DNA of 64,000 bases from Candidatus Bathyarchaeia archaeon (GCA_035283685.1 DATETJ010000003.1:842-64841); one strand, 5' to 3'; numbered from the stretch's first letter, positions 3,259-61,997 are shown. The notes: generated by a model from the sequence alone, not told the origin. Numbers and translations are program-made.

Positions 3259-3431
3259 TTCATTTTTCCCTCAGGCTATAAGCGTATTAGCTTAGACTAT
3301 CGGATTCGTTCCAGCTCCTGAACCCAAAACGAATCTCGATTGAATACTACCTGCCTGTTCTTTGTGTCAACATAAGGTTTTCCACGAGTCATCATACAAT
3401 TCCCCAAACAGACCTATGCATAATGCCGGAA

Positions 3432-3680
3432 GCTTGTTGTTGACACCTAGAGTAGTTGGGCATCAGCATCCATACAGTCAGGAGTCCGCAAACATGGAAG
3501 TAGTAGTCAACGTACACGCGGCGCAGACTACTACTTCTAAACCTGAAGCACCTCGGCATTACTACAATTTCTATGCAGAAGCTAACGACTCGTAAAAATT
3601 CAGATCGCTATAAACAGTCTGCGCCTGCAAGTTCAACTACAACGGTCCAAGCACAGCCAGCAACACAACCATGTCGGCTT
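3432..3680 (+). repeat. noncoding dispersed repeat, copy A
   Basis: Colinear with 5887-6130. It contains a 51-nt block (3491-3541) identical to 5946-5996, with a 12-bp-stem hairpin at 3497-3537. Confidence 0.8.
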
Positions 3681-4744: not shown

Positions 4745-4935
4745 TACTCCTTCGGACGCCCTCAAACATGAGGCGCAAACCACTGCTTCCAAACAGAAAC
4801 CACTTCAGTGTAATCACCTGACCTAAGCGAAAGTTAATAACATCTGAAACACTCAGACCCGCATTCCAACATCCAAGAAGTTGCTGTAACAAAGCACTAC
4901 ACCAGTCAACACCGCTGAAAAACACAAAACAGCGC
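4745..4935 (+). repeat. noncoding dispersed repeat, copy B (degenerate; lacks the 5' half of the hairpin)
   Basis: Aligns with 5990-6140. The shared 19-nt core AAGTTAATAACATCTGAAA sits at 4830-4848. Confidence 0.7.
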
Positions 4936-4995: not shown

Positions 4996-5220
4996 ATGGT
5001 CGAAGTCAAGAATCTGAAACTCACAGTTGTCTTAAGGAAAGAAGAAGAGGGAGGTTACTCAGCCCAGTGCCTGGAGCTCCCAGGAGCCATCAGCCAGGGA
5101 GAAACAAGAAAAGAAACCCTCACCAACATCCGAGAAGCCATAGAAGGCTACTTGGAAGCATTCCCAGAAGAGCTGGAACATCTCAAGCGAAAGAGAGAGT
5201 TGGTGCAAATAACTGTCTGA
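4996..5220 (+). CDS. hicB: HicB-family antitoxin (UPF0150-type)
   Basis: 74 aa. The string EEGGYSAQCLELPGAISQGETRKETLTNIREAIEGYLE is typical of the HicB N-terminal fold. An adjacent hicA-like ORF overlaps its stop codon. Confidence 0.8.
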   Translation: MVEVKNLKLTVVLRKEEEGGYSAQCLELPGAISQGETRKETLTNIREAIEGYLEAFPEELEHLKRKRELVQITV

Positions 5221-5440
5221 GAAGCTACCAACCCTTTCTTGGCGAAAAATAATCAAGGCACTCAACAAAGCTGATTTCAAGGTCGTTCATCAAAGAGGCA
5301 GCCACATATTTCTGACGGATGGTAAGCACAAGGTCACAGTTCCACGACATGAAGCAGTAAAGAAAGGTACCCTTCTTTCGATAATGGCTCAAGCAGGACT
5401 AACAAAAGAAGAATTTCTGAAACTTTTGAGAAAAAAGTGA
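5213..5440 (+). CDS. hicA: HicA-family mRNA interferase toxin; no ATG/GTG/TTG start (possible CTG 5213, or an inactivated gene)
   Basis: Not in the ORF track. The frame is open from the stop at 5210-5212 to TGA 5438-5440 and translates as LSEKLPTLSWRKIIKALNKADFKVVHQRGSHIFLTDGKHKVTVPRHEAVKKGTLLSIMAQAGLTKEEFLKLLRKK. This carries the HicA hallmark GSH...VP.H...KGTL. Confidence 0.65.
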   Translation: MSEKLPTLSWRKIIKALNKADFKVVHQRGSHIFLTDGKHKVTVPRHEAVKKGTLLSIMAQAGLTKEEFLKLLRKK

Positions 5441-5528
5441 ACCAAAAAGAAAACTGACCTCTCCCGTAATATTGAAAGATTGGATTCATAACATCCGACT
5501 TGGATAGAATACTCAAGAGGGAAATCCT

Positions 5529-5744
5529 GTGGAGGCAACAGTAGAAAACATAGAAAAACTCGACGTAACATACGACAAAGAACGAGACATACTCTACATA
5601 AGCTTCGGCAAACCAACAGAAGCCGACGAATCCAAACTAACCCAAAACGACATAGTAGTAAGATACAAACACGGAAAAGTCATAGGCCTCACAGTCATAA
5701 GCTTCTCAAAAAGACTACCCTCAGAACACCAAACAGCGCAGTAA
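5529..5744 (+). CDS. DUF2283-family small protein
   Basis: GTG start. The motif LDVTYDKERDILYISFG is characteristic of DUF2283. Confidence 0.65.
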   Translation: MEATVENIEKLDVTYDKERDILYISFGKPTEADESKLTQNDIVVRYKHGKVIGLTVISFSKRLPSEHQTAQ

Positions 5745-5886
5745 ACGAAACCACGTCTCCAAGCAACCTTCTCCTAACCAATAAGGAACGAACCCTACTT
5801 CAAGAAATAAGCAGTCTACTTGAGGAAATCATCAAAACCATAGACCATAAAAGAACCCAAACAGACCACCAGAGAAAAGCGCTCAA

Positions 5887-6525
5887 ACTTTGTTGATGAC
5901 ACTAAGAGCAGTTGGGCATCAACGCCCACACAGCCAGCCGCCTACAACATGGAAGTAGTAGTCAACGTACACGCGGCGCAGACTACTACTTCTAAAGCAG
6001 AAACCCACCTCGGTGTTATTACTGATTCTAAGCGGAAGTTAATAACATCTGAAAAGAAACCCACCTCCGACATCGAAGAAGTTGTTGTGGCAAACCCTTC
6101 AACGTCAACAACAACTTCAAAACAGCCACAGCCCTTAACACATGACATTGGGAGGCGTTGATGTCACCCGGAACACACTGATGATGACGTCCGTACAGCT
6201 TCAGCCACACCCATACGTGATGATGATGAAACCATAGCGAAAGTCAACTTCATCACGCACACAATCACAACACTGGCAGAAGAAGGCCTTAAGGGTATGT
6301 CACCTTCTTCTTCGACACAGTCTTCACAGCCGCAGCGCTCAACATACTCAAAGCCACGCATACCAACATTAAACGTCACGCATGCCAACATTGAACGTCA
6401 CGCTAAAACACGAGCCAACAGTGCCAGAAACACCATACAGAACCATGAACAGGGCCTAAAAAGCAAACTGAAAAGTGGAACTTTCACGCTGAAAAAAATT
6501 TTCAGCACTCATACTAATAGACCCC
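5887..6525 (+). repeat. noncoding dispersed repeat, copy C (longest; left arm of the inverted pair)
   Basis: Hairpins at 5952-5992 and 6078-6120. Core motif at 6036-6054. A 22-bp tandem unit is present about 2.5 times at 6355-6423. It is colinear with the reverse complement of 16431-16905. Confidence 0.85.
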
Positions 6526-6547
6526 AACCCTGACGCCATGAATCCGC

Positions 6548-7687
6548 CTACGCCTCACGCTTAAGCAGATGCCCCAACATAACCGCGAACTCATCCAAAC
6601 GGTCTATGCTAATATTCTCACCTATCACGTGACCCACATGCCCAGGACCCATAATCACAGTCTTGATGCCAGCCATATGATACAGGTACATGGAATCAGT
6701 TCTTCCCAAACCAATACGCAGTTGAGGTTGATACCCAACAACGCGTTCACACGACTTCACAGCCAGCTTAACCACGTCTTCCTCTTTATCAACGAGGTAA
6801 GGCAACTGCACATTTGAACTGAACTCACATTTCACTTTGACATCCTGCAAGTTCTCAAGCGCGGACCGAATCGTCTGAATTATCGCCTGAGGATCCTCAT
6901 TTGGCAGAATCCTTCTCTCACAAGTTATCCTGCACTCGCTTGGAACAATGTTTATGGCTCTGCCGCCTTCGATCAGAGCCACGTTAACAGGCATTTCTCC
7001 CACAAAATCACCCATCTTAAATTTGCCCAACGGAATCTGCCTCAACGCCGCTATTACATTGACCATGTCGTAAATGGCGTTCTTTCCTTGATGCGGCGTC
7101 GACGAATGCGCTTCTTTTCCAATCGTCGTAACTGTGAAAGAGACTCGCCCAGTGCATCCGAGGCTCACTGTCCACTTGTCGTTCCGAACTGTGGGCTCAA
7201 TGTTTACGCCATAGTCAGCAGTAAACCCACGATTATTAGAGAGAAAATACGGCATACCCAGCAGTCTCTTTCCACCTAGTTGGATTCCATTATCCTCGTA
7301 GTTCACGAACTGAACAATCAACTTGGCAAACCGCGAACTGTCCAAACACGAAAGCGCAGCCAAAGTAGCAGCAATCCCTCCCTTCGCATCAGAGGCTCCA
7401 AGCCCAATCAGCCGAGTGCCTTTCCGCTTGGGCACCAACGCGTCACCCCATTCAATCGAGGGCGGCACAGTGTCAAAATGCGTGTTCAAGAGGAAGACTT
7501 TATCTCCATTGAACGTTCTTTCAGCTGTAACGTTGAAAAGATCGTCAAGCGTAACCTGAAAGCCCAGCGCCTCAAGCTGTGCAGACAGGAAATGGGCGCA
7601 GTCTTGCATGCCCTTTTCAACTTTGTCCAACGTGACTTGATATGTGGGAAACTCGATCAGTTGCTTCAAAATTTCAACAGCGTTCAT
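6548..7687 (-). CDS. M20-family metallohydrolase (ArgE/DapE/LysK-like deacylase)
   Basis: 379 aa with LLNTHFDTVP (metal His/Asp), GLGASDAKGG and a C-terminal HVIGENISI. Confidence 0.75.
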   Translation of the reverse strand: MNAVEILKQLIEFPTYQVTLDKVEKGMQDCAHFLSAQLEALGFQVTLDDLFNVTAERTFNGDKVFLLNTHFDTVPPSIEWGDALVPKRKGTRLIGLGASDAKGGIAATLAALSCLDSSRFAKLIVQFVNYEDNGIQLGGKRLLGMPYFLSNNRGFTADYGVNIEPTVRNDKWTVSLGCTGRVSFTVTTIGKEAHSSTPHQGKNAIYDMVNVIAALRQIPLGKFKMGDFVGEMPVNVALIEGGRAINIVPSECRITCERRILPNEDPQAIIQTIRSALENLQDVKVKCEFSSNVQLPYLVDKEEDVVKLAVKSCERVVGYQPQLRIGLGRTDSMYLYHMAGIKTVIMGPGHVGHVIGENISIDRLDEFAVMLGHLLKREA

Positions 7688-7840
7688 ATTCTTGGCAACC
7701 TACTCGTGGCTTTGAACTTCAGAGGTATCCTGTTGAGTGCAGATAAAATCTTGCAATGGGATGCCGAACCCGTCTGGAATGATTTTAATATGGGATCAGC
7801 CATATCATCTGCTTCCAAATTCATGGGAGCATGCACATTC

Positions 7841-9013
7841 ATGTCTGGAAAACCTCTAGTCTCAATTGTTACAGCGGGCATGTCCAAGTTTGGGCGATTC
7901 GACGGCGTTTACGGCAGAGAACTCTTTGTTGAAGCGGCGAAGGACGCCTATGAAAAATGTCCAAATCTCGATCCAAAAAGAGACATCAAAGCGTTGATTG
8001 TGGGCCAAATGGGCGAATCTTTTGAGCATCAAGGGCACACGGGTCCAACTGTGGCAGACTGGATTGGGTTGACGCCGATCCCCACAATGAGAACTGAAGC
8101 TGCCTGCAGTTCATCTGCAGTTGCCATACGAGCAGGAGTCATGGCAGTCATGTCAGGCCTTTACGACGTGGTGATGGTAGGCGGCGTCGAAAAAATGACC
8201 CACAGGAAAACCTCAGATGTCACTGAGTATCTCGCCATGGCTTGCGACTTCCCATTTGAGCAGTGGCAAGGCGCAACTTTTCCAGGTTTATTCGCTATGG
8301 TTGGCCAAGCGCACATGCACAAGTATGGCACAACTGAAAAGCAGATGGCGTTAGTCGCCGTTAAGAATCATCGCCACGGCGCAATGAACCCAAAAGCACA
8401 CATGCAAAAAGAAATCTGCCTGGAAGACGCATTGTCTTCAAGGGTTGTGGCTTGGCCTCTGAAACTGTACGACTGTTCACTCATAACCGACGGAGCCAGC
8501 TGCCTAGTCTTGACCAAGCCTGAAATAGCGAAGAGATTCACTGACACGCCAGTTCACATAATCGGCTCAGGACACGCCAGCGACACGATTGGCTTGTATG
8601 AACGCGAGAACCTAACAAACCTTGACGCCGGTCGACTAGCTGGAGAGGAAGCCTACAAAATGGCAGGCATCAAGCCCGAAGACATTGACGTAGCCGAAGT
8701 TCACGACTGCTTCACAATCGCTGAGATCGTCGCGTACGAAGACCTAGGCTTCTGCCCGCGCGGCAAAGGCGGATGCCTAGTCGAGGACGGACAAACAGGG
8801 TTAGATGGCAAGGTTGCAGTTAACACGAGCGGTGGACTAAAAGCTAAAGGGCATCCTGTGGGCGCAACGGGCACGGCGCAAGCCTACGAAATCTACCTAC
8901 AATTAACCGAGCAAGCGGGGAAACGACAGGTGAAAGGAGCTGAAATCGGCTTAACCCACAACATCGGAGGCTTGGGCGCAACGGGAGTAGTTAACGTTTA
9001 CAAGAGGGGATGA
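7841..9013 (+). CDS. thiolase (acetyl-CoA C-acetyltransferase, archaeal type)
   Basis: The track ORF starts at 7280, but its first ~187 codons lie antisense to the M20 gene. In-frame ATGs at 7823 and 7841 give MSGKPLVSIVTAGMSKFGR. The protein has a catalytic-Cys context (RTEAACSSSAVAI) and C-terminal GHPVGATG and NIGGLG motifs. Confidence 0.8.
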   Translation: MSGKPLVSIVTAGMSKFGRFDGVYGRELFVEAAKDAYEKCPNLDPKRDIKALIVGQMGESFEHQGHTGPTVADWIGLTPIPTMRTEAACSSSAVAIRAGVMAVMSGLYDVVMVGGVEKMTHRKTSDVTEYLAMACDFPFEQWQGATFPGLFAMVGQAHMHKYGTTEKQMALVAVKNHRHGAMNPKAHMQKEICLEDALSSRVVAWPLKLYDCSLITDGASCLVLTKPEIAKRFTDTPVHIIGSGHASDTIGLYERENLTNLDAGRLAGEEAYKMAGIKPEDIDVAEVHDCFTIAEIVAYEDLGFCPRGKGGCLVEDGQTGLDGKVAVNTSGGLKAKGHPVGATGTAQAYEIYLQLTEQAGKRQVKGAEIGLTHNIGGLGATGVVNVYKRG

Positions 9014-9020
9014 AAAGCAG

Positions 9021-9446
9021 ATGTCTGAAGTTCGACCTTTCACGATAGAGAGCTTCTACAAGTTTGTGGGCGAAGGCAAACTGATGGCAGCCAAATGCAT
9101 CAATTGCGGAGCCGTGACTCTGCCGCCCCGACCCGCATGCTCAAAATGCTTGTCCCAAAATTTGAAATGGATTCCCGTGGACGAAGAGTGCAAACTGTTA
9201 ACATACACCATGATTCACGTGTCGCCCAAAGAATTCGAATCAAAGGTTCCCTATGCCCTCGGCATCGTCAAGTTCGATGACGGAAGTCAGCTCCTAGGCA
9301 TGATTCGAGACATCGAACCGAACAAGATTCAAATCGGCATGACACTCAAAGTGGACTTCGAAAAGACTTCGACATCGCCCTCAGCCCCTGCACAAACACA
9401 ACCGCAATGGCCACAATGGCCAAGGTACTTTTTCAAACCAGCGTAA
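9021..9446 (+). CDS. DUF35 OB-fold/zinc-ribbon protein (thiolase/HMG-CoA synthase scaffold family)
   Basis: Zinc ribbon CINCGAVTLPPRPACSKCLS followed by an OB-fold region. It lies immediately downstream of the thiolase. Confidence 0.8.
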   Translation: MSEVRPFTIESFYKFVGEGKLMAAKCINCGAVTLPPRPACSKCLSQNLKWIPVDEECKLLTYTMIHVSPKEFESKVPYALGIVKFDDGSQLLGMIRDIEPNKIQIGMTLKVDFEKTSTSPSAPAQTQPQWPQWPRYFFKPA

Positions 9447-9545
9447 ACAACAGTGGCATTCGGAGAAACACCACAAACTATATTATGCTGTTGGCATTCC
9501 TCTGTGCCGCAGAAATGCTTCGCGTCTGAAAAGCGGTGAAATGCA

Positions 9546-10241
9546 GTGAACGTAAAAGCCGTGGTGTTTGACCTTGACGGCACAATCGTCAGCTTCAACT
9601 TAGACTACAAATCAGCACGCGCAGACGTAATACAATTCTTCACTAGCCAGGGATTTCCGCAGTCAATTTTCTCGATGAACGAAAGCGTGTTTGAAATGCT
9701 GAAGAAAGCCGAAATCTACTTGCAGAACCACCGTGTAGGCGCTAAGGACCTTTCGAAGCTTAAAAAAGACGTTTGGAGTATCATGGAAAAGTACGAGATG
9801 GAAAGCGCCAAATCCACACAGCTGTTGCCTGGGATAATTGAAACGCTTCAGGCTTTGAAAAAAATGAGGCTTAAGCTGGGGCTCTTCACTGTAAACAGCC
9901 AGAGAGCAACTGAACACATTTTGTCAACGTTTCGGTTGAAGCCTTTCTTCCGAACAGTTGTAACCCGAGATTCAGTGGACTTTGTGAAGCCTAACCCGAT
10001 TCACTTAGAGACTGTCTTGAAAGCATTGAAAGTCAAGCCAGAAGAAACCATAGTTATAGGCGACAGTGTACTCGACATGAAGGCAGCACAAGGACTCGAT
10101 GTTTTCGCCGTTGGTACGTCAACAGGCTTTGCTACGCCAGAGCAACTGACCCGGGCAGGAGCCAACTGCCTGATCTCATCGCCGCTAGATATCATCCCTC
10201 TTGTGGAAAAACTCGACCAAACTGAATCAGCAACAGACTGA
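9546..10241 (+). CDS. HAD-superfamily phosphatase
   Basis: HAD motif I VVFDLDGTIV, motif II LGLFTVNS and motif IV VIGDSVLDM. Confidence 0.75.
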   Translation: MNVKAVVFDLDGTIVSFNLDYKSARADVIQFFTSQGFPQSIFSMNESVFEMLKKAEIYLQNHRVGAKDLSKLKKDVWSIMEKYEMESAKSTQLLPGIIETLQALKKMRLKLGLFTVNSQRATEHILSTFRLKPFFRTVVTRDSVDFVKPNPIHLETVLKALKVKPEETIVIGDSVLDMKAAQGLDVFAVGTSTGFATPEQLTRAGANCLISSPLDIIPLVEKLDQTESATD

Positions 10242-10262
10242 CTCCATACCTAGTGATGGATT

Positions 10263-10961
10263 TTGAAGCTGTACCTGCTCTGTGATGGATTCGTCACTTT
10301 AGACAAGAGTTTCCTAGTTTACATGAAGTACATGGCACAGCCTTACGAGGCAGCCATAAAATCCCTCCTTATTATGGCTGAAAGTGAAAACATACTAGTT
10401 GACACTGGAATAGGCGAGCCGCCAGAAAAGTACCGAAAATTCTATGCAGTAAAAAGGGAGCCTGAGCACAACCTGAAAGCCCAACTAGCCCAGCAAAAGA
10501 TGAAACCTGAAGACATAGGCATTGTGATAAACACGCATCTTCATTTTGACCATTGCGGCAATAACGCCCTTTTTCCGAACGCCAAATTCATTGTTCAAGC
10601 CGACGAATTCAGGTATGCTCAACAGCCGGAGAGATTTCAAGAAGCAGCTTACATCAAAGAGCTTTTCAACATCAAAGCCCATTACAGACTCGTTCAAGGC
10701 GGGCTTAATGTCACAGAGGACGTCTTCTTGCTTCCAACTCCAGGTCATTCTATTGGACACCAGTCAGTTGTCGTCAAGTCGGGTGAAAGGAACTATGTTT
10801 TCTGCGGCGACGCCGCGCCCGTTAAAGAAAGTCTGGAGAAGAGGAACATACCCGGCGTGCTCTACTCTTCCCATGAAGCCCTCATGTCAATTGACCGCTT
10901 GAAGGCAATAAGCAATTCAATGTACATTTACTCTCACGACAACGAACAACTAATGCTTTAG
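10263..10961 (+). CDS. MBL-fold metallohydrolase (lactonase-like)
   Basis: HLHFDHCGN zinc motif and TPGHSIGH. The N-terminus MKLYLLCDG is typical of AHL-lactonase-like proteins. TTG start. Confidence 0.7.
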   Translation: MKLYLLCDGFVTLDKSFLVYMKYMAQPYEAAIKSLLIMAESENILVDTGIGEPPEKYRKFYAVKREPEHNLKAQLAQQKMKPEDIGIVINTHLHFDHCGNNALFPNAKFIVQADEFRYAQQPERFQEAAYIKELFNIKAHYRLVQGGLNVTEDVFLLPTPGHSIGHQSVVVKSGERNYVFCGDAAPVKESLEKRNIPGVLYSSHEALMSIDRLKAISNSMYIYSHDNEQLML

Positions 10962-10964
10962 AAA

Positions 10965-11056
10965 TGGAGCCCCGGGCGGGATTCGAACCCGCGACCTACA
11001 GCTTTCTTGAGCCTATGTATACAAGGCTATTGCTCTACCGGCTGAGCTACCGAGGC
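10965..11056 (-). tRNA. tRNA-Thr(TGT) with a 16-nt canonical (37/38) intron
   Basis: The reverse complement reads GCCTCGG-TA-GCTCAGCCGGTAGAGC-A-ATAGC-CTTGTA[TACATAGGCTCAAGAA]A-GCTGT-AGGTC-GCGGGTTCGAATCCCGC-CCGGGGC-T-CCA. A CTTG/CAAG 4-bp helix flanked by 3-nt bulges gives a BHB. Confidence 0.85.
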
Positions 11057-11119
11057 ACACTCATCAACAACAAGCAACCTAATATTTTAAAATTTGGTGA
11101 CGAGAAAAAAACAAGTTCT

Positions 11120-11225
11120 TGGTGCCGGGGGCGGGATTCGAGCCCGCGACTTCTGGACTGGGCGTTTGCCCCTTTGTTCTCCAGATTATGAGTCTGGCGC
11201 CCAAACCAAGCTAGGCTACCCCGGC
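11120..11225 (-). tRNA. tRNA-Met(CAT), elongator-type or Ile2-type, with a ~28-nt non-canonical intron 3' of the anticodon stem
   Basis: The reverse complement reads GCCGGGG-TA-GCCT..GGGC-G-CCAGA-CTCATAA-TCTGG-[33 nt where 5 are expected]-GCGGGCTCGAATCCCGC-CCCCGGC-A-CCA. G1-C72 argues against an initiator. Confidence 0.65.
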
Positions 11226-11378
11226 AAACGTGCCATAGCTCTAGCGCGAGCGTTAATTTGAGGCTTTCTAATGCCGCCTAGGTTATATTTTGGTTTTGGA
11301 CTGCGTGTAGTTTGTCTTCATTCACACACGCTTATTATCAGCGACAGAAGAAAGACGCATCAGAATGGTGATTCGAAC

Positions 11379-11843
11379 ATGGAAATAGAAGACATAATGA
11401 TAAACAAAGTGGTTACGATAGATCCAAACGCCACTATTAGAGATGCTGCCAAACTCATGAACAAGCATGAAATTGGGTGCCTTATAGCGATCAAGAAGGG
11501 AAAAGCCTTGGGCATAATGACTGAAAGAGACTTGCTGAAGAGAATTGTGGAACAAGGCTTGAACCCACAAAAAACTAAGGTTCACCAGATAATGTCCAAA
11601 CGCCTAGTCGTAGGCGCACCGCATATGGAGATTGCAGACGCCGTTAGACTGATGCTGCAGAAGAAAATCAAGAAACTGCCCATCGTCGAAGAGGGCACGA
11701 TAATCGGTTTGATAACACTGACTGACATCGCGCGGACAGCGCGCATTGAACCTCAAATGGTAGGCGTCATCAAAGAACTTCAAAAGTCAGGTTGGCTGCC
11801 ACCCAAGCACATGAAAAAAGTATTAGACTTCTATGTAGTTTAA
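11379..11843 (+). CDS. CBS-domain pair protein
   Basis: The in-frame ATG at 11379 gives MEIEDIMINKVVTIDPNATIRDAAKLMNKHEIGCLIAI...GIMTERDLLKRIV plus a second CBS repeat (KKLPIVEEGTIIGLITLTDI). The upstream part of the track ORF (from 11271) looks noncoding. Confidence 0.7.
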   Translation: MEIEDIMINKVVTIDPNATIRDAAKLMNKHEIGCLIAIKKGKALGIMTERDLLKRIVEQGLNPQKTKVHQIMSKRLVVGAPHMEIADAVRLMLQKKIKKLPIVEEGTIIGLITLTDIARTARIEPQMVGVIKELQKSGWLPPKHMKKVLDFYVV

Positions 11844-11846
11844 GAA

Positions 11847-12560
11847 TCAGTGTTTTTCAAGCCGTTTAACTGTGTCACGTGTTCCAACGTACACCACGTC
11901 AGCAAGGCCTATGAACAATCCAGTTTCAACTACGCCAGAAACACACTTAAGCCTAGTGTCAAGCTCCTTTGGATCCTCGATTTTCTTCATCCACACATCC
12001 AAAAGAAAATTCCCATTGTCAGTCACAACGGGTCCGACTTTGCCCGTTCCCATGCGGAGAACAGGTTTACCTCTAAACTCGCGAATCTTTGACATGACCG
12101 TAGCTACGGCGAATGGTAAGACTTCAACCGGCACAGGATGATTAACTCCAAGACGCTTGACAAGCTTGGTTTCATCAATAACTATCACCTTCTGCTTGGA
12201 AGCCAAGGCGACTATTTTCTCTCTCGCCAAAGCGCCGCCCATACCTTTTATCATGTTCAAGTCTGGGTCAACTTGGTCAGCTCCATCTATCGTTAGATCA
12301 AGTTGCGGATGCTCATCCAAAGTTGTTACTTGTATGCCGCAGTCCACAGCCAGTGAGAATGCTTGATGCGACGTTGGCACTCCGAGAATGCACCATTTCC
12401 TTTGACGAACAAGCTTGCCTATTTCATGTATAGCATAGGCTGCAGTGCTTCCGCTGCCAAGTCCAATGACCTGATTATTCTTGACGTGTTTAACGGCTTC
12501 TCTGGCAGCGCGCTTCTTGGCATCTTCAACCCAACCTGTGCTGCTAGCTTTCGCCTTCAA
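11847..12560 (-). CDS. rpiA: ribose-5-phosphate isomerase A
   Basis: GLGSGSTAAYAI, TIDGADQVD and IKGMGGALAREKIVA. Confidence 0.85.
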   Translation of the reverse strand: MKAKASSTGWVEDAKKRAAREAVKHVKNNQVIGLGSGSTAAYAIHEIGKLVRQRKWCILGVPTSHQAFSLAVDCGIQVTTLDEHPQLDLTIDGADQVDPDLNMIKGMGGALAREKIVALASKQKVIVIDETKLVKRLGVNHPVPVEVLPFAVATVMSKIREFRGKPVLRMGTGKVGPVVTDNGNFLLDVWMKKIEDPKELDTRLKCVSGVVETGLFIGLADVVYVGTRDTVKRLEKH

Positions 12561-13272
12561 CTTCCATCTGTCCTAGTCTTTCAAGAACCTTCTCAACTTC
12601 AGCCCTAATCTCTTCAATTCGTTTTTGAGCGTCGCTCCTAGGCGTTGGCGCTAGTGTAGGCTTTTTGCGAGGCTTCTTCTTATCTTTCTCCTTTTCTTTC
12701 TCGGGTTCTTCCATCGATTCCAAGCCACGCGTTGGCAGTTCAACTTTGGTAGTTGCAGCCTCTTCCTCAGCCGCCTTTATTTCCAACCGCGTTCTAAGTT
12801 CATCCACCTTCTGACCTAGCTCATCGAAGCGCTCGCTGAACAGCTTAACCAAGTCGTCCTGCATCGATTCAAGTTCATGCAATGCCACAACAGATTCGCT
12901 CTTTGAAATGCTGTCCCGAATAGTAAGCATTCGATCTTTGTAGTGTTCGCCGATTTTCTCCCTTTCTTCCTCCGTTATCTTGCCTTCAGCTTGGGCTTCA
13001 TACAAACGTCGAATGGCAAAGCTCAATATCTCTCGCTCAAGGTCAAGCATCTTGAGCTTTTCCTTAGCCTCTTTAGCTTCCTCTGTTGTGACTGTGTGCT
13101 GCGACGTTAGTGAAAATCGCTTTGTCCACGCTTCTGTCGGGGAAACAGCTGCTGGCTCAGGCGCAACTTTCTTTTTGGCTTTTCCCATTCTCGTGGCATA
13201 AAACACGACGAGAGCGGTTGCAACTGCTCCACCCACTGCTAGAGCATAAAATAGCCACTCGGAATCTGCCAC
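12544..13272 (-). CDS. membrane-anchored coiled-coil protein (hypothetical)
   Basis: An N-terminal TM helix (WLFYALAVGGAVATALVVFYA) is followed by Glu/Lys-rich heptad-like sequence. Confidence 0.5.
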   Translation of the reverse strand: MADSEWLFYALAVGGAVATALVVFYATRMGKAKKKVAPEPAAVSPTEAWTKRFSLTSQHTVTTEEAKEAKEKLKMLDLEREILSFAIRRLYEAQAEGKITEEEREKIGEHYKDRMLTIRDSISKSESVVALHELESMQDDLVKLFSERFDELGQKVDELRTRLEIKAAEEEAATTKVELPTRGLESMEEPEKEKEKDKKKPRKKPTLAPTPRSDAQKRIEEIRAEVEKVLERLGQMEVEGES

Positions 13273-13329
13273 GAGGTTCCCTCAACTGACATCAACGTTT
13301 TTCATCGTAGGTGGTATATAAAATTGATA

Positions 13330-14091
13330 TCACGCTTTCAACGTGGCGACAAACAACTCAGCAGAGCGACCTGAACTCGAGCAGCAGATTCCAGGCAAGT
13401 GCTCAACCTTAACTTTTGAAAACGCTTTCTTGGTTGCTTGCTCAATCTGTTTAGAGTCAAAACCTAGGTGGACGTCGCCCATCTCGTCTCTGAATTCGGC
13501 GAAAGTGTGAGTGCATAGGTCAACTATCACAGCTTTTCCAGCCTTGTTCAGGACTTGCCGAACACTCTTGAAAACCTTGTTTATGTCTGGGCAGTGGTGC
13601 AGCATAAGGGTCGAGAACACAGCGTCGAATCGCTTTGGAATTGTCGCGTATTTCCGAGCCATGTCCGTGCTTCCTTGGATGTTTTCAGCTATTCCAAAAA
13701 ATGGGATGATATGCTCTTTTTTCTTTTTTAGAGCCAATAGCATGGCAGGTGTGGGGTCCATGGCGTAGAACGAGGCATGAGGCATAAGCTTCCTGACTTT
13801 TGAAGCCAATTTTACTGTGAAGAAGCCTGAGCCAGCTCCCATGTCCAGAATCTGGGCGGTTGGCTTGAGTTTTGGAGTGGAGTTTAGGCGAGTTACGATG
13901 GAGTCCACTATCCTTTCAATCCCTTCCTTGCCGAAGTATCCTAGAACGATTTTGTCTCTTCTTTCAGCCTCTTTCTCGGTAAAATGGCCGATCTCTTGAA
14001 CAAGAATGCTGACGTTTTCGGCATTTAGTTCACGCAACAGATCAGTCAGTTTAGCTGTGTGTAGGTATTGTTCAAGAGTGAGCTGAGGCAT
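13330..14091 (-). CDS. class I SAM-dependent methyltransferase
   Basis: Motif I ILDMGAGSGFFT, with a downstream FDAVFSTLMLHH. Confidence 0.7.
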   Translation of the reverse strand: MPQLTLEQYLHTAKLTDLLRELNAENVSILVQEIGHFTEKEAERRDKIVLGYFGKEGIERIVDSIVTRLNSTPKLKPTAQILDMGAGSGFFTVKLASKVRKLMPHASFYAMDPTPAMLLALKKKKEHIIPFFGIAENIQGSTDMARKYATIPKRFDAVFSTLMLHHCPDINKVFKSVRQVLNKAGKAVIVDLCTHTFAEFRDEMGDVHLGFDSKQIEQATKKAFSKVKVEHLPGICCSSSGRSAELFVATLKA

Positions 14092-14093
14092 GG

Positions 14094-15389
14094 TTACTCC
14101 TCTCTAGGTTTCTTTCTGCCCAGTCGAATCTTGGCGGTCAATATCTTCTCTGTGGCAAACAGCCTAGCGGCTACGAAGAGTATCACGACTGTGAATATAG
14201 CCACGTATCCAATGCCTAAGGCAGCAGTGAAATAATCACCTGTTATGGTTGCTCGAGCTGCCAACATTGGGTGCGTGAACGGTAACGCTAGCAGAAATAT
14301 TCTGAATCCTAGAGGAAGTGTGTTGATGTCGGCAAACATTAGCACTAGCATGGGAATGAGCAGCGGGGTGTACACGAAGCCAAGCAAGGATTGAGCTCCA
14401 CGCACATCTTCGGCGAAGACTGAAACCACAACAGCTAATGCCAGCGCTGCGAGCAGTGCAACGAAAACCGAGAGCCCAAGAATAATATAGCTTAGAAGAC
14501 TAGGTGCCATGCCAACTGCGGCGAGGTCGATGGGCTGCTGTGCTACTGCTCCGAAAGTGAATGAACCCATGTAATAAATTACGCCCAGAACTGTGGTTAC
14601 AGCGCCGATTGCTGCAACAACCGTTGATCCTGCAAGCTTCCCCATCAGCAACGTGAAGCGACTCAGGGGCAAACTCATCAGCGTTTCCAAGGTTTTTTCT
14701 TCTTTCTCGGTTGCCACCGATGTTGCTGCCAACTGCATGGCCAAGATGATTAACATGAACAGAGCTAGAGGCAATCCTAATGACTGCGATTGAGCAAATG
14801 CGAACAGAGCTGATGGGTTCACGTCGGCTGGTTTTCCTTTGATAATGGAGTTTTCTGATACATTGATGGGGTCCAGGACAGTCTGTGGGTTGGAGAACTC
14901 TTTCTGAACAATTTCGTGTATCAGTTTCTGTTCAAATGAGTCTACCAAGCTCTGGGTAATCGTGAGAGTGAGCGACTCGGTGATTCCGCCTCCTCTGAAG
15001 ACCCCGTAGACTCTCAAAAAGCCTTGCTCGCCTTCAGTGATGTTTTTGCTAAAGCCGTCCGGGATGATCAGCACTGAGGTTACATTCGATGCTTGAGCCG
15101 CTTCGGCAATCTCGTCCATGTTTCGCGCTTCAATAGACTCAACTTTCACGTTTGGTATCGATCTCAAGAAGTCTGTCAAATTCCGGGCTACAGGCCCTTC
15201 GTCGAAGTCTGCAACTGCGATTGGCACAGTTCGTATGCTTTCTTGCATGGCTTCGGTTGAGGTGCGCAGCATAAACCCCATTAGTGGGAAGATGAGAAGA
15301 GGAGCCAAAACCATGCCTAGCAGTATTCGTGGGTCGCGCACCATCTCTTTGACTTCTTTCAAGATTATGTTGACCAATGCGCTAGGCAA
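14094..15389 (-). CDS. ABC-2 type transporter permease
   Basis: Has an N-terminal TM helix, a large extracytoplasmic loop and a C-terminal 5-TM bundle. The track ORF (to 15470) overlaps the ATPase by 89 nt. The in-frame TTG at 15389 gives LPSALVNIILKEVKEMVRDPRIL and overlaps the ATPase stop by only 8 nt. Confidence 0.7.
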   Translation of the reverse strand: MPSALVNIILKEVKEMVRDPRILLGMVLAPLLIFPLMGFMLRTSTEAMQESIRTVPIAVADFDEGPVARNLTDFLRSIPNVKVESIEARNMDEIAEAAQASNVTSVLIIPDGFSKNITEGEQGFLRVYGVFRGGGITESLTLTITQSLVDSFEQKLIHEIVQKEFSNPQTVLDPINVSENSIIKGKPADVNPSALFAFAQSQSLGLPLALFMLIILAMQLAATSVATEKEEKTLETLMSLPLSRFTLLMGKLAGSTVVAAIGAVTTVLGVIYYMGSFTFGAVAQQPIDLAAVGMAPSLLSYIILGLSVFVALLAALALAVVVSVFAEDVRGAQSLLGFVYTPLLIPMLVLMFADINTLPLGFRIFLLALPFTHPMLAARATITGDYFTAALGIGYVAIFTVVILFVAARLFATEKILTAKIRLGRKKPREE

Positions 15390-16113
15390 GACCTGCCACC
15401 TCCACAAACACTTCCTCCAAATTCGCCGCCTTATGCTTAGATTTGAGCTCCGATGGCGAACCTTCGACAATGATTTTGCCCTTGTTCACCAGTGCCACTT
15501 GATCGCAGAGCTGTTCAACCTCGAGCATGTTGTGGCTGGAAAGCAGAACTGTGACCTTGTGCTCCTTGGAGTATCGTTTGATTATTTCTCGAACGTGGTA
15601 AGCGTGTAACACGTCCAAGCCGCCGGTCGGCTCATCCAACATGGCAAGTTTGGGTTTGTTCATTAATGCACGTGCTACGAGTAGTCGTCGCTTCATGCCT
15701 TTGCTGTAAGTTTTCACTCTATCCTTTAACCTGTCTCCGAGACCTGAGATCTTAGCTGCATCTTCAACCATTCGCGTCAGATCATCATTGCTCTGACTGT
15801 TGAATTTGCCCATGAACTGCAGGTACTCGTAACCTGAAAGGTTCTTGTAAGCACCAGCCTCCTCAGGCAAATAAGTAATGAGCTTTCGAACTTCAGAAGC
15901 TTCGTGAACAACGTCTCGACCAAAGACTCGTGCTGAGCCGTGAGTTGGCAAAATCAGCGTCGAAATAATCCTGAGCGCAGTTGTTTTTCCTGCGCCGTTT
16001 GGTCCAATCAACCCGTATATTCTGCCTTCTTCAACCCGGAATGTCAAACTGTCTAGTGCGAGGATGTCTCCGAGGCGTTTTGTCAAGCCGGAGGCTTCGA
16101 CAGCGTTAGTCAT
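15382..16113 (-). CDS. ABC transporter ATP-binding protein
   Basis: Walker A GPNGAGKTT, signature-like YSKGMKRR, Walker B LAMLDEPTGGLD and H-loop SSH. Confidence 0.85.
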   Translation of the reverse strand: MTNAVEASGLTKRLGDILALDSLTFRVEEGRIYGLIGPNGAGKTTALRIISTLILPTHGSARVFGRDVVHEASEVRKLITYLPEEAGAYKNLSGYEYLQFMGKFNSQSNDDLTRMVEDAAKISGLGDRLKDRVKTYSKGMKRRLLVARALMNKPKLAMLDEPTGGLDVLHAYHVREIIKRYSKEHKVTVLLSSHNMLEVEQLCDQVALVNKGKIIVEGSPSELKSKHKAANLEEVFVEVAGLA

Positions 16114-16214
16114 GTCTTATTCCACTTTTCTCGAAAGAAACTCCTCGAGGCTTATAGGATTTTGCCAAACAGGCATGATGTTAGTCTATTTAGGGCTGAG
16201 TTGCTCTTCGCGTG

Positions 16215-16372
16215 TGGTGGGGCCGGCAGGAGTTGAACCTGCGACCTACGGGTTTCTCCTTTTTTTGACCGCTCCAGAACTTCTTCATTCTCACGGTCGT
16301 GAGTCCGCAAACCCGTATTCTTGTGGCTTGCTTTCTGGAGCCCGTCGTCATCCCTGGCTAGACTACGACCCC
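16215..16372 (-). tRNA. tRNA-Trp(CCA) with an 81-nt intron at 37/38 (intron 16254-16334)
   Basis: The reverse complement reads GGGGTCG-TA-GTCT..-G-ACGGG-CTCCAG[81 nt]A-CCCGT-AGGTC-GCAGGTTCAACTCCTGC-CGGCCCC-A-CCA. A CTCC/GGAG helix with AGA and AAA bulges gives a BHB. Confidence 0.85.
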
Positions 16373-16430
16373 ACCATTGGCTAGCCACCTTCAAGACAAG
16401 GCATGATCAAAATATAACCATTGTTCTCTG

Positions 16431-16905
16431 CTGGTCTATTAGTATGAGCTGGAGAAAAAATTTTTGAGGTTAGGGTTGAGCCTGTTCTGTTTGTGTTTTG
16501 GGCTGGGTTTTGTTTTCAGTTGGTGTCTTGTGCTCTGTTTTTCGTGGTTTAGCGTGTGTTTCTATGTTGGTTAGCGTGGAGTTGCAACATAGTTAGCGTG
16601 AAGTTAGCGATGTTGTTGATGTATAGTCTTTGGTGGGGGTGCGGCTGAAGCTGTGTGGACATCGTCGTCAGAGTGTTCCGGGTGACATCAACAAGGTTTG
16701 AGCGTTGTTTCTATGGGTCTGTTTGGGTTTTTGTATGGTGGTCTTGGCTCTGTTCGATCCTTGTTTTGCGTCAGGTTTAGGTATGGCTTCGTCAACGGTG
16801 GCGTTGTGGAGCTGGTTTCTGTTTCAGATGTTATTAACTTCCTGTTAGAGCAGTTAATAATAATGTATGTGGGCGTTGTGTTTTGGGTTCTGTTATGTGT
16901 TGTCT
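16431..16905 (-). repeat. noncoding dispersed repeat, copy D (right arm, inverted relative to copy C)
   Basis: Identical islands: 16822-16842 is the reverse complement of 6034-6054; 16673-16692 of 6157-6176; 16433-16448 of 6508-6523. The TTAGCGTG motif sits at 16549, 16571, 16593 and 16604 (22/22/11-bp spacing). Confidence 0.85.
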
Positions 16906-17110
16906 AGCTTGGAGTTTCATGTTGGTTAGCGCACTTTTCAACATATCTTAACGCACTTTTCCATGTTGGTTTCCGTGTTGTTTGTGGTGATCTAACGATG
17001 AACCTAACGAGGGTTTTTCCATAGGTGGTGCGGGGGAGGGGTGGGACTTGGGCCACCGATGTTTTCGTTCGAGGATTTCGCAAAGTGGAAGCTTCTCTTT
17101 CGGTTTAGCG

Positions 17111-17122
17111 AAAAGTATATTT
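17111..17122 (+). promoter_or_regulatory. TATA box of the 5S rRNA gene
   Basis: AAAAGTATATTT is centred about 26 nt upstream of the predicted 5S 5' end. Confidence 0.55.
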
Positions 17123-17142
17123 GCTTATTCCAAGCTGCTTAG

Positions 17143-17271
17143 GTGGGGTTGCCGGCCATAGGGCGTGGGACCCACCCGATCCCTTTCCGAACTCGGCAGT
17201 TAAACCGCGCTCCGTTTTCGGTTCTAGTGTGGTCTTCGGCCATGCGAAGCCGAGAAAGCTGGCTGCCCCAC
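17143..17271 (+). rRNA. 5S ribosomal RNA (stand-alone)
   Basis: Terminal helix GTGGGGTTGCCGGC pairs with GCTGGCTGCCCCAC. Internal CCCACCCGATCCCTTTCCGAACTCGGCAGTTAAAC and GCGAAGCCGAG match conserved 5S loop/helix strings. Confidence 0.8.
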
Positions 17272-46935: not shown

Positions 46936-48423
46936 ATGCTAGATACAGAACTGAAATCGAAAATAAACCAATTATGGGATAAATTTTGGAGCGGAGGAAT
47001 ATCGGATCCTCTTGTTGCCATTACTCAGATGTCGTATCTGATTTTCATGAGGAGACTGGAAGATGAAGATATCGGCAGGGAACAAAATGCTCAACTAAGC
47101 GGAGAGCATTATGAATCCGTCTTCAAGGTTAATGATGATTGCAGGTGGTCGGAATGGACGAATCTTCCTTCTAACCAAATCTTAGACCATGTTAGAGACA
47201 AAGTGTTTCCATTCCTTAGAACACTTGGTGGAGAAGACTCCCTATATGCTCAATATATGAAACATGCTGTGTTCACTATCCCAACGCCTTCCCTTCTTAT
47301 TGAAGCTGTGAAAATAATCAATGATATGCATATCAAGGAACAAAACAGGGATGCAAAAGGAGATCTATACGAATATCTACTTTCAGAATTGAAAACCGCC
47401 GGAAAAAACGGGCAGTTCAGAACACCGAGACACATAATAAAGATGATGGTTTCCCTAGTAGATCCAGAGATCGGCGATAGTATTTGCGATCCTGCTTGTG
47501 GAACTGCGGGTTTCTTGATTGTTGCTTATGAACATATCCTGAGAAATAACACTTCAAAGGAATTCATCAAAACAGATGAGTTAGGAAACGAATACGGGTC
47601 TAAAGGAGATAAACTGGAAAAAAGACAGTGGAATCTGCTGTTAGAACATACTTTCTATGGATATGATTTTGACACGACAATGCTAAGAATATCACTTATG
47701 AACATGATGATGCATGGAATTGAAAGACCTAACATAAGAGAACAGAACACGCTTTCCAGTAGATATAACCAAGAAAAGAATCGCTATGACGTAGTTTTGG
47801 CGAATCCACCATTCAAGGGAAGTATCAACGAATCGGAGATTAGTAGAGAATTTTCAATCACAACTAAGAAGACAGAGATTCTTTTCCTTGAACTGATGTA
47901 CAACATCCTCTCAGGTGGCGGAAGATGTGCAGTTATTGTGCCAGACGGAGTGTTATTCGGTAATTCTAGAGCACACAAAAAGATTAAGGGAAAATTACTT
48001 GAGGAATGTCGCATGGATGCAGTCATATCAATGCCTTCAGGCGTATTCAAACCCTATGCAGGGGTATCTACGGCGGTTCTAGTCTTTACAAAAGGAGAAC
48101 CCACTAAGAGAGTGTGGTTCTATGATATGAAAGCTGACGGCTACAGTCTTGATGATAAGAGAACTTTCCTAGACGGAAAGGGCGATATTCCCGATATATT
48201 GAGTAAATTCAGCAAAAGAGATCTCGAGCGATTCGAAGATAGAAAAGCCAGCTGCTTCTTTGTTCCCATTGAAGAAATAAAGGAAAATGGTTATGACCTA
48301 AGCGTTTCAAGATACAGAGAACTTGAGTACGAAGAAGTTGTCTACGAAAACCCTGAAGTAATCAAACAGAAAATTCTAGAGCTGGAAAACAAGATTGTTG
48401 AAACCTTACGAACCATTTCTTGA
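46936..48423 (+). CDS. hsdM: Type I R-M N6-adenine DNA methyltransferase subunit
   Basis: FRTPRHI, DPACGTAGFL (motif I) and LANPPFKG (motif IV). Confidence 0.9.
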   Translation: MLDTELKSKINQLWDKFWSGGISDPLVAITQMSYLIFMRRLEDEDIGREQNAQLSGEHYESVFKVNDDCRWSEWTNLPSNQILDHVRDKVFPFLRTLGGEDSLYAQYMKHAVFTIPTPSLLIEAVKIINDMHIKEQNRDAKGDLYEYLLSELKTAGKNGQFRTPRHIIKMMVSLVDPEIGDSICDPACGTAGFLIVAYEHILRNNTSKEFIKTDELGNEYGSKGDKLEKRQWNLLLEHTFYGYDFDTTMLRISLMNMMMHGIERPNIREQNTLSSRYNQEKNRYDVVLANPPFKGSINESEISREFSITTKKTEILFLELMYNILSGGGRCAVIVPDGVLFGNSRAHKKIKGKLLEECRMDAVISMPSGVFKPYAGVSTAVLVFTKGEPTKRVWFYDMKADGYSLDDKRTFLDGKGDIPDILSKFSKRDLERFEDRKASCFFVPIEEIKENGYDLSVSRYRELEYEEVVYENPEVIKQKILELENKIVETLRTIS

Positions 48424-48623
48424 GCAGTCTCGGGCGCATTTCCCATTGACCTTATGATTTAAGGAATAAGCACTTTCTTGTTTGTGGCTTGGTCCTGCTG
48501 TTACGCCTGTTGGCTTCATCGAAGGCTCGATTTGCCCAGTCACCCCAGCTTTCACTATTTCCTGGCAAAGATTCTCGAATTGCTGATTTTGTCAAGTCTT
48601 TCGACCTGGATTATTGAAAGCAA

Positions 48624-49346
48624 TCATATATCTCTGACATGTTTAAAATCTATACAATTTTTATGATAGTAACTATTTATGGTCGACTTTATTGCGGGAG
48701 AACTTGTCAAAATATGAACTGAATCAGAAGTGCAGAATATCGTACTATCATACCCAGTTGCCCATAAAACTGCATCAGCAACAATTTGTCTATCGTCCTC
48801 GTCTTCGATGCAGACAAGCGAGTCAATAAAGCCTTGATCTTTTGATATGGGTATAAGAGGTTTCTGCGTTTTTGTCTCCAAGACAGCACCTATTTTGGAT
48901 TCTACTTCTCTTCTGGTTGCACGATATTCACTTACAATAACTTCTTCATTTCGTGTTATCACGATTTCAAGGAACTGTTTAATGAAAATCCCTTGGTTTT
49001 CATTATACCCTTGAAACATGGCTTCACGGAATTTTCTAAGGTCTTTTATTTTGTTCCTGCTTAGCACAATGTTCAAGTCTCTGCCAAATTCGGACATAAA
49101 GCTCTTGAAATTCTCAATTTCTGAAATAACACTTTCGCTTGTGTGCCTCATGTGAGATGCATTGAAAATGCGAACGCAATCATTATGAAAAAAATCAAAG
49201 TGCACACCATAATTGATATAGACGCATGTGTCAAGAAAGCAAATCCTACTTGCAGGGTTTTTTGTAGGATTTCCAGACATTCGAAATTGTCCCCAAAAAG
49301 TCTTCTTCTTTCCCGTAGACTGTTCTGAAAAATTGCGACCTTTCAT
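48624..49346 (-). CDS. PIN-like nuclease domain protein (putative toxin)
   Basis: Acidic quartet pattern: CFLDTCVYI, SESVISEIE, DEDDRQIVADAVLWA and IFCTSDSVHIL. An alternative start at 49280 gives MSGNPTK. Confidence 0.5.
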   Translation of the reverse strand: MKGRNFSEQSTGKKKTFWGQFRMSGNPTKNPASRICFLDTCVYINYGVHFDFFHNDCVRIFNASHMRHTSESVISEIENFKSFMSEFGRDLNIVLSRNKIKDLRKFREAMFQGYNENQGIFIKQFLEIVITRNEEVIVSEYRATRREVESKIGAVLETKTQKPLIPISKDQGFIDSLVCIEDEDDRQIVADAVLWATGYDSTIFCTSDSVHILTSSPAIKSTINSYYHKNCIDFKHVRDI

Positions 49347-57496: not shown

Positions 57497-57786
57497 AGGT
57501 CAAAAGCAAAGCAGAGATGGCCGCAGATCTCAACCGATTTCTGCTAGTCGAAAACGTGTCCTGGGAGAAATTGCCGAAAAAGGACCTAGCCGAGCAGCTG
57601 AATCGTTTCCTCTTGATCCAAGTGTCTTGGGAACGGTTGTCGCAAAAAGACTTGATCAAGGTCTGCTCGGCGTTTCAGCGGCTTCGGCAAGACGTTGACG
57701 AAATTCTCGCGCTACTGGATCAGGCGCCCTTTTCGACTGAGAGTCCTCAAAAAACAATAGAGAAGATGGTTCAATATGTTATTTAA
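57493..57786 (+). CDS. hypothetical protein with an internal ~21-aa duplication
   Basis: AADLNRFLLVENVSWEKLPKKDL is repeated as AEQLNRFLLIQVSWERLSQKDL. It has an ATGA overlap with the previous gene. Confidence 0.45.
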   Translation: MKVKSKAEMAADLNRFLLVENVSWEKLPKKDLAEQLNRFLLIQVSWERLSQKDLIKVCSAFQRLRQDVDEILALLDQAPFSTESPQKTIEKMVQYVI

Positions 57787-61963: not shown

Positions 61964-61997
61964 GCTCTCTTCTCACAGGTCTTCTTATCATCACCCA

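Follow-up and report, generated by a model that had tools for sequence, protein, structure and literature searches.

Bathyarchaeia are abundant and uncultured, and to our knowledge almost nothing has been described of their noncoding DNA. Two kinds of hairpin-bearing DNA are of interest here: the palindrome-associated transposable elements (PATEs), derived from IS200/IS605 insertion sequences (IS), 0.4 to 0.7 kb long, without terminal inverted repeats but with strand-specific hairpins at their ends, and present in archaea; and the attC cassette arrays of integrons, which have also been reported in archaeal metagenome-assembled genomes. The repeats BOX, RUP and SPRITE cluster together and insert into one another, and archaeal MITEs (transposable elements of the miniature inverted-repeat type) include those of Sulfolobus (SM1-4), Halobacterium and Haloquadratum (PMC10969869). 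Here we analyse a stretch of 64,000 nucleotides (hereafter the window) from Candidatus Bathyarchaeia archaeon (GCA_035283685.1, DATETJ010000003.1:842-64841), in which an earlier note, made from the sequence alone, had pointed to two diverged noncoding repeats in inverted orientation around a 9.9-kb block of housekeeping genes. These repeats, copies A and B, and two partial ones, C and D, are probably members of a dispersed, non-autonomous, noncoding intergenic repeat family of Bathyarchaeia with a full length of about 0.63 to 0.66 kb; the inverted arrangement of A and B around the block is incidental. The element is multi-copy, with a fixed order of optional modules and a strand asymmetry; it lies at gene 3' ends, its copies typically filling the gap between convergent genes; and in at least one case it stands as an insertion against an empty site. 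It is conserved above the neutral level and associated with the gain and loss of small genes.

Four copies in the window and a dispersed family

The three islands of identity quoted for the two arms (6034-6054 with 16822-16842, 6157-6176 with 16673-16692, and 6508-6523 with 16433-16448) are exact reverse complements, each occurring once per strand in the window. By self-comparison with BLAST, 5745-6547 aligns in inverted orientation with 16373-17147 in five pieces; copies A and B share 87.5% over 56 nt (E 2e-13), 74.7% over 91 nt (E 6e-13), 64.9% over 185 nt (E 7e-14) and 77.4% over 53 nt (E 3e-7). In direct orientation, copy A matches copy C (3434-3598) with 79% over 167 nt (E 3e-35) and copy D (4766-4893) with 75% over 130 nt (E 3e-16). 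An nhmmer profile of the family, built from 37 related copies and run over the window, finds copy A along the whole profile (5889-6531, E 1e-162), further matches at 3433-3676 (E 7e-37) and 4760-4890 (E 3e-16), and pieces between 16430 and 16984; it finds no further copy in the 64 kb. Both the inverted arms and the partial direct copies noticed earlier are confirmed. The limits of the arms, first placed at 5887-6525 and 16431-16905, are refined in Table 1, where the range of copy B is that of its core. Their colinearity holds for the order of the common islands but not strictly, as copy A has M4p, M2, h5 and h6 in addition and module M1, which lies upstream of copy A, is found within copy B. 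One strand of the element is rich in A+C, with a fraction of 0.63 in copy A (+ strand) and 0.72 in copy B (- strand) against 0.51 in the whole window. The window sequence is also present in Rifle aquifer metagenomes.

Relatives were fetched via homologs of the M20 peptidase gene beside copy A, and carry homologous noncoding DNA (their loci are cited below by L numbers). From four instances a degenerate 23-base motif of module M4 was derived (GGCTGAAGCTGTN7TCNTCNTN5TGTTCC), and JGI metagenomes were scanned with it. At least 116 stretches matched; the family figures given here (module maps, copy counts, gene context) refer to the matches listed among this total of at least 116. Several of these fall on single long Bathyarchaeia contigs: at least four share one of 880 kb, and three share one of 250 kb. 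Near full length are 37 copies, 0.43 to 0.85 kb long with a mean pairwise identity of 66%; many others are partial or split by genes, and some form tandem or nested piles in the same orientation. A scan of a genome collection with AAGTTAATAACATCTGAAA returned only nine unrelated chance matches, viral contigs, phages and plasmids gave no DNA match to the element, and literature searches on Bathyarchaeia repeats, MITEs and small RNAs (sRNAs) yielded nothing relevant. With at least 116 dispersed copies, the situation is essentially the one that the earlier note had set against its own proposals: a genome-wide repeat with no positional relationship.

Anatomy of the element

Ten modules of copy A, mapped on about 110 of the loci listed, follow one conserved order on one strand: (h4) - M4p - M2 - M3 - h4 - M4 - h5 - (h6) - M5a - M5b. 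The limits of copy A recur in other copies, with a common start at 5890 and a common end at 6517, homology reaching to about 6517-6537. The A+C-rich strand is made of about six discrete hairpins with A+C-rich linkers between them, and the 5' arms of the hairpins are triplet runs (GAAGTAGTAGTC, GAAGTTGTTGTTG, GTGATGATGATGAA, AGAAGAAGG). M2 is 96% identical to 3491-3547 in copy C and has 59 distinct copies in other loci. M3, which contains TTAATAAC, was aligned in 92 distinct copies; its two arms vary independently, which rules it out as a hairpin. The palindrome of M5b can be written GCTG-A(n)T(m)-CAGC, with CTCATACTAAC after it; n+m is 11 or 12 in 30 of the 37 copies.

Terminal inverted repeats were found neither in about 30 left ends (TTGTTGATGACAC...) and 27 right ends (...CTCATACTAAC) nor in the 664-nt unit that contains copy B. 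A hairpin lies 11 nt ahead of the conserved CTAA-type 3' end of the element, the M4p hairpin lies at its 5' end, and TTGAT stands at the 5' boundary and recurs at the start of M4. Together with the strong strand asymmetry and the same-orientation piles, these traits would suit descent from an HUH-type single-strand transposon, as a non-autonomous element of the IS200/IS605 PATE or IS91/Helitron kind that would be recognised by its subterminal hairpins on one strand. We consider such a descent improbable: neither a Y1/Y2 transposase nor a TnpB family recurs in 0.78 Mb, near-identical copies are missing, and the sole datable insertion has a 5-nt direct repeat, which HUH families are not known to make.

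Table 1. Coordinates of the repeat copies, their modules and adjoining features in the window
Feature	Position	Strand	Content	Remarks
Copy A	5890-6537	+	M4p, M2, M3, h4, M4, h5, h6, M5a, M5b	Full-length canonical copy; A+C-rich strand on +
M4p	5890-5945	+	TTGTTGATGACAC...CATCAAC hairpin, then CACACAGCC	5' boundary from alignment of about 30 copies
M2	5946-6001	+	Hairpin GAAGTAGTAGTC-N16-GACTACTACTTC	
M3	6008-6062	+	TCGGTGTTATTAC..TCTAAGCGGAAGTTAATAACATCTGAAA	Conserved as primary sequence; 5' boundary of short variants
h4	6070-6130	+	Hairpin GAAGTTGTTGTGG...CAACAACAACTTC	
M4	6157-6216	+	GTTGATGTCACCCGGAACA...ACAGCTTCAGCC	Source of the metagenome scan motif
h5, h6	6217-6330	+	h5 GTGATGATGATGAA...TTCATCAC; h6 AGAAGAAGG...CCTTCTTCT	Both missing in copy B
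M5a	6340-6420	+	Two to three tandem 22-nt units, CACGCATNCCAACATTRAACGT	
M5b	6421-6537	+	...GCTGAAAAAAATTTTCAGC palindrome, then CTCATACTAATAGACC	
Antitoxin remnant and M1	5745-5845; 5846-5889	+	RelB/Phd-like remnant; module M1	Both outside the canonical element
Copy B	16433-16866	-	M3, M1-type spacer, M4, M5	Short variant, without M4p, M2, h5 and h6
Insertion	16429-17092	-	Copy B, extra M5-like fragment (about 16878-16984), tRNA T-arm-like fragment (17040-17057)	664 nt
Copy C	3390-3676	+	M1, M4p, M2, degenerate M3, optional module	5' part; its end coincides with the convergent NHL gene's stop codon
Copy D	4760-4918	+	M2 without 5' arm, M3, degenerate h4	Fragment between the divergent NHL and hicB genes
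M20 peptidase gene	6548-7687	-		Distance of the stop codon: about 10 nt to the outer limit of copy A, 24 nt to the CTCATACTAATAGACC island
tRNA-Trp(CCA)	16218-16372	-	Intron-containing	TATA-like box at about 16405-16415, just outside the insertion
5S rRNA gene	17148-17267	+	Stand-alone	Beyond arm B; ancestrally divergent from tRNA-Trp, 114-nt spacer

An insertion and its empty site

The homology limits of copy B are sharp (16433/16439 and 16860-16866) in 115 instances among the matches listed, and the copy is 81.5% identical over 432 nt to L027 and 82.5% over 440 nt to L116. The insertion in which it lies is bordered by the direct repeat TTCTC (16424-16428 and 17093-17097). In L149 the site is empty: window positions 16428 and 17098 are joined there with a single TTCTC, and tRNA-Trp and 5S are divergent neighbours across a 114-nt spacer with back-to-back TATA-like boxes (L149 9504-9855). 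It follows that arm B belongs to an insertion into the tRNA-Trp/5S spacer, unless L149 lost it through a microhomology deletion. In other relatives this spacer is a hot spot that gained an element or two to three genes. Fragments consisting of h5/h6 only lie directly downstream (L147 9735-9881) or upstream (L148 9499-9680) of the 5S rRNA gene, so that single modules can occur alone. The T-arm-like fragment of the insertion reads GGTGG..CCAAGTCC..CCACC...GCACCA; a similar sequence abuts an element copy in L053 (about 7812-7851), and it may be the relic of a tRNA-linked integration.

Between diverged relatives, elements are kept at orthologous sites with changed lengths. Next to M20 the window, L020 and L028 have an A-type M5, and L027, L090 and L116 a B-type copy, which in L027 is a noncoding homologue of 430 nt directly 3' of the M20 stop codon; L023 and L025 have no element after M20.

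The 9.9-kb block

The gene content of the block is as listed earlier (M20, thiolase-DUF35, HAD, MBL, tRNA-Thr, tRNA-Met, CBS, rpiA, an ABC-2 pair and tRNA-Trp), with the addition of a methyltransferase (13330-14091) and a hypothetical gene (12544-13272), and Pfam scans bear out that the window contains no transposase. The earlier note had offered three readings of the repeat pair, as substrates for inversion, relics of a composite mobile unit, or paired regulatory or noncoding RNA (ncRNA) loci, none of which is supported. As for the last, the arms are just two of the dispersed copies.

Homologous inversion of the 6.5-16.4 kb segment between A and B is very improbable. The inverted orientation is real, with an exact island of 21 nt and a stretch of 88% identity over 56 nt, and the B-type element of L027, L090 and L116 stands where the window has an A-type one. 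However, all assembled contigs across either junction show a single orientation at 100% identity: the A junction is covered by eight, drawn from different samples, the whole block by four, and the B junction by four together with three that carry DUF1512. In L147 and L148 the CBS-to-ABC half points towards DUF1512 as in the window, the MBL-to-M20 half not being adjacent. In addition, L090 and L116 have neither a 5S nor a DUF1512 gene beyond their B-type element, Pfam scans of the window found no recombinase gene, and the identity between A and B is patchy.

A composite mobile unit that carried the block, with A and B as its relics, hardly comes into consideration either. The repeats do border the block, and its flanks vary between relatives. 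Against this, the block consists of core genes of ordinary composition, and its divergence from relatives matches that of the surrounding genes (about 76% at the nucleotide level). Relatives split it (L020, L147, L148; in the latter two, the neighbourhood of tRNA-Trp and 5S has taken up two or three different genes) or flank it differently: L027 keeps the order from M20 to ABC, followed after 67 nt by a membrane protein without a window homolog, and has no tRNA-Trp/B/5S flank. Finally, copy B is a separate insertion into the tRNA-Trp/5S spacer, the arms hold no open reading frame (ORF), and no transposase accompanies them. The block was not seen between the same repeats at another location in another genome.

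Conservation, folding and coding capacity

Pieces of the element are 78 to 86% identical between species (window versus relatives). The four-fold sites of M20, DUF35, HAD and MBL are 43 to 64% identical, typically about 48% (window versus L020, L027 and L028). With an identity so well above that of four-fold sites, the sequence is constrained, or homogenised, above the neutral level. The 3' two-thirds are the best-conserved portion, and (GAT)3G, AGAAGA and CTTCTTCT, which the search pattern did not force, are invariant in 28 diverged copies.

These observations are what gives weight to a tentative alternative, clearly less likely than a dispersed repeat: a non-mobile, multi-copy family of ncRNA genes or cis-regulatory cassettes, spread by duplication and held by purifying selection, with M3 as a putative promoter or operator and an RNA of about 350 to 450 nt (h4-M4-h5-h6-M5) that would end at the M5b hairpin and T run. 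It would also account for the retention at orthologous sites and for M3 as an A/T-rich module, conserved as primary sequence, that gives the short variants their sharp 5' limit. Shuffled controls fold less well than either strand (z = -2.8 and -2.5), which agrees with it as well. With both strands at z of about -2.5 to -2.8, the choice of a strand by folding energy was dropped.

Other results speak against an ncRNA. In 22 pairs and 28 distinct copies the covariation score is 0.092 against a shuffled mean of 0.086, with 39 of 500 shuffles as high, and the percentage paired equals the shuffled value. The h6 stem is 94.8% paired in the 28 copies without significant covariation, and in h5 an invariant 5' arm faces three forms of the 3' arm (TTCATCAC, ACTAACAC and ACCACCAC), a variation that is not compensated. 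M3 is unlike the TATA boxes of tRNA and 5S genes in the same genome (TTATATTT); many copies are truncated or split by genes; and an empty site exists. Rfam 15 gave nothing at gathering or E-value thresholds for the window and 12 loci. The lone sub-threshold match there, to the C/D-box sRNA sR38 at 6151-6205, scored 21.6 bits against a threshold of 50 (E 0.05); a C/D-box reading of M4 was rejected on this score and because the D-box position reads TTCA, not CUGA, and conservation of the C' box is missing. Readings as an H/ACA RNA or a group II intron, also without Rfam support, were dropped by eye.

No conserved ORF was found in the copies, and their indels are not multiples of three. A coding reading of M2 (SSSQRTRGADYYF*) was given up, as most copies have upstream stop codons. 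ORFs on the G+T-rich strand are to be expected, that strand being poor in A, and public gene callers have in fact placed mutually exclusive ORFs in copy A (5942-6533): 70 aa on one strand versus 75 and 68 aa on the opposite one (L002, L005).

Gene context and small-gene turnover

Among the matches listed, 63 elements have a convergent gene on the M5 side and 33 a co-oriented one; on the other side, 62 genes run in the direction of the A+C-rich strand and 45 against it. Where the nearest ORF past M5b is convergent, no more than 50 nt separate its stop codon from the M5b end in 12 of 14 cases, and the longer T run, mostly T7, is on the sense strand of that gene. Copy A follows this pattern: about 45 nt past the M20 stop codon, the sense strand of M20 carries a T7 run. 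A scan for bacterial-type promoters and terminators gave chance-level results. At other loci the A+C skew reaches 1 to 2 kb into the flanks; it is not seen at the four-fold sites of the window genes. The genes beside the copies are of ordinary and varied kinds (136 ORFs with 132 Pfam families), and an association with tRNAs was abandoned because only 2 of 12 long loci have one near the element.

Copies lie at synteny breakpoints, with small genes beside or between their modules, which upholds the earlier suggestion that the family marks accessory-gene junctions. Where modules lie 0.8 to 1.5 kb apart, the gaps hold small genes (HEPN/MNT, DUF433, GYD, hemerythrin-like), and in L020 an NTP_transf_2 gene is inserted exactly between the M20 stop codon and M5b. 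A DUF2283 cassette (window 5484-5845, L020 12646-13007, L118 915-1130) always adjoins element modules. It is 92 to 94% identical (about 92% nt, 93 to 94% aa), far above the 76 to 80% of core genes, which suggests a recent horizontal exchange of the cassette. Just upstream of DUF2283 in the window lies a C-terminal remnant of a DUF4258-like toxin (5489-5528), and just downstream the RelB/Phd-like remnant; L020 (12396-13340) has an intact antitoxin, behind which a RelE-like gene breaks off after about 35 codons.

With toxin-antitoxin (TA) genes clustering near copies in the window and in L020, the repeats could be thought of as decayed paralogous TA genes. The stretch 5745-5845 is indeed a genuine 5' antitoxin remnant (tblastn with the intact L020 antitoxin: 73% over 22 aa, E 4e-5), and M1/M4p show short nucleotide resemblances by eye to the antitoxin 3' half. 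Such an origin is nonetheless most improbable: tblastn with the intact antitoxin and the RelE N-terminus matches no element copy, flanking genes are mostly non-TA, and the module order, invariant motifs and hairpins shared by more than 100 copies are unexpected from independent decay. Derivation from relBE genes was rejected likewise, for want of a protein-level signal, and no profile match between the element consensus and a TA family was found.

How the element may spread and persist

Taken as a dispersed repeat, the element would have reached its sites by insertion, either through a staggered cut catalysed in trans, as the 5-nt direct repeat could indicate, or through microhomology recombination. 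It may be retained because its M5b end supplies an oligo-T termination signal for both converging transcripts, transcription of the A+C-rich strand probably giving the upstream gene a hairpin-studded 3' extension. Through their homology, dispersed copies would create junctions at which TA pairs, DUF2283 genes and NTP-transferases are gained and lost.

Several points weigh against this picture. The element lacks terminal inverted repeats, and 250 ORFs (element-flanking or TnpB-sized) in 0.78 Mb show no recurrent transposase, integrase or TnpB family. There is a single pair of empty and filled sites, and its 5-nt repeat could equally stem from a microhomology-mediated deletion. The copies within a genome are old (65 to 80% identical), so that there is no sign of recent transposition. 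The putative transcribed strand and terminator role are read solely from position and T runs, and the T run on the A+C-rich strand often has just 4 to 5 nt. The covariation at shuffled level also belongs on this side.

Neighbouring observations

The three tRNAs of the block (10968-11056, 11123-11225 and 16218-16372, all on the - strand) all have introns and were assigned by eye to Thr(UGU), Met(CAU) and Trp(CCA). ARAGORN found one of the three and mislabelled it Tyr(ATA). The tRNA-Trp gene has 155 nt with an intron of about 80 nt; in some archaea the Trp intron holds a C/D-box guide. Upstream of tRNA-Thr (11057-11095, - strand), TTGCTTGTTGTTGATGAGTGT stands between a TATA-like box and the tRNA 5' end; its resemblance to the 5' boundary motif of the element, TTGTTG(A/T)TGACAC, may be a coincidence.

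In place of the element, L025 has downstream of M20 (5263-12573) a solo Cas1 together with DUF4145, an N6/N4 DNA methylase and a ParB-like gene, a region that may be an integrated element, casposon-like or of another kind; the same locus has a T17 run at about 5111-5127. In the window, Pfam matches at region level between about 40 and 57 kb (HsdM, HsdS, ResIII helicase, ThsB TIR-like, Schlafen/AlbA_2, SWI2/SNF2 ATPase) indicate a defence-type cluster with type I restriction-modification. Four ORF-poor gaps of 0.75 to 1.6 kb (59515-61089, 48423-49246, 57786-58541 and 61963-62747) gave no match to the family profile and none to Rfam at gathering threshold.

Significance and comparison with known systems

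For the earlier finding the main outcome is negative: the 9.9-kb housekeeping block is very probably neither an invertible nor a mobile unit. The element itself accounts for long "empty" gaps and for spurious calls of hypothetical proteins; its copies break assemblies and mark synteny breakpoints and sites of accessory-gene turnover. If M5b is a bidirectional terminator, it offers a testable archaeal 3'-end signal. If the element is mobilised, an unrecognised transposition system would be implied, since no known transposase accompanies it.

Several described systems share part of its features. The ncRNAs OLE, ROOL and GOLLD, bacterial and about 600 nt long, resemble it in length, conserved noncoding sequence and many hairpins; they differ from it in that the element has an archaeal host, many truncated copies per genome, and neither an Rfam match nor covariation. 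Like the archaeal MITEs, it is noncoding, non-autonomous and multi-copy, with insertion polymorphism between relatives and one possible 5-bp target duplication. Unlike them, it has no terminal inverted repeats and no cognate IS was found in 0.78 Mb; its copies are old, diverged, and conserved above neutral. With PATEs it has in common the absence of terminal inverted repeats, strand-specific hairpins near the ends, a similar size and an archaeal host, whereas the direct repeat at copy B and the multi-module interior set it apart, and no TnpA/TnpB partner was seen in the window or among the families recurrent in 0.78 Mb. As in integron attC arrays, hairpin-forming repeats separate small accessory genes, many of them TA; however, Pfam scans found no IntI, M2 and M3 by eye lack the R''/L''-L'/R' core and its GTTRRRY, the genes do not share one orientation, the element is five to ten times longer, and most copies flank housekeeping genes.

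It is conceivable, though we think it rather unlikely, that the element is an archaeal genome-organising landing pad for the exchange of small accessory-gene cassettes (TA pairs, DUF2283, nucleotidyltransferases) between loci and genomes without a recognisable integrase or transposase, or else that its transcript is a new class of large hairpin-array RNA. As a landing pad it would be a functional analogue of the integron attC and bacterial interspersed mosaic element (BIME) systems, its triplet-stem hairpins working, as DNA or as RNA, in a strand-specific array of about 0.65 kb.

The closest likeness of a dispersed repeat is to BOX/SPRITE and to the repetitive extragenic palindromes (REP) with their BIMEs, which likewise are multi-copy, extragenic and palindrome-rich, combine modules variably, and occur clustered or nested; with SPRITE it further shares a frequent position at gene 3' ends and terminator-like parts. 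No RAYT-like gene was seen, and the element gave no match in Rfam or in plasmid and phage DNA; the likeness is one of kind only. The element differs from all of them in being archaeal and much longer (about 650 nt), with an A+C/G+T strand asymmetry, stems made of triplet runs and, as putative terminator, an A(n)T(m) palindrome in place of the GC stem with a U tract. The best-supported placing is that of a family which belongs to none so far described and which, in kind, stands beside BOX/SPRITE or BIME.

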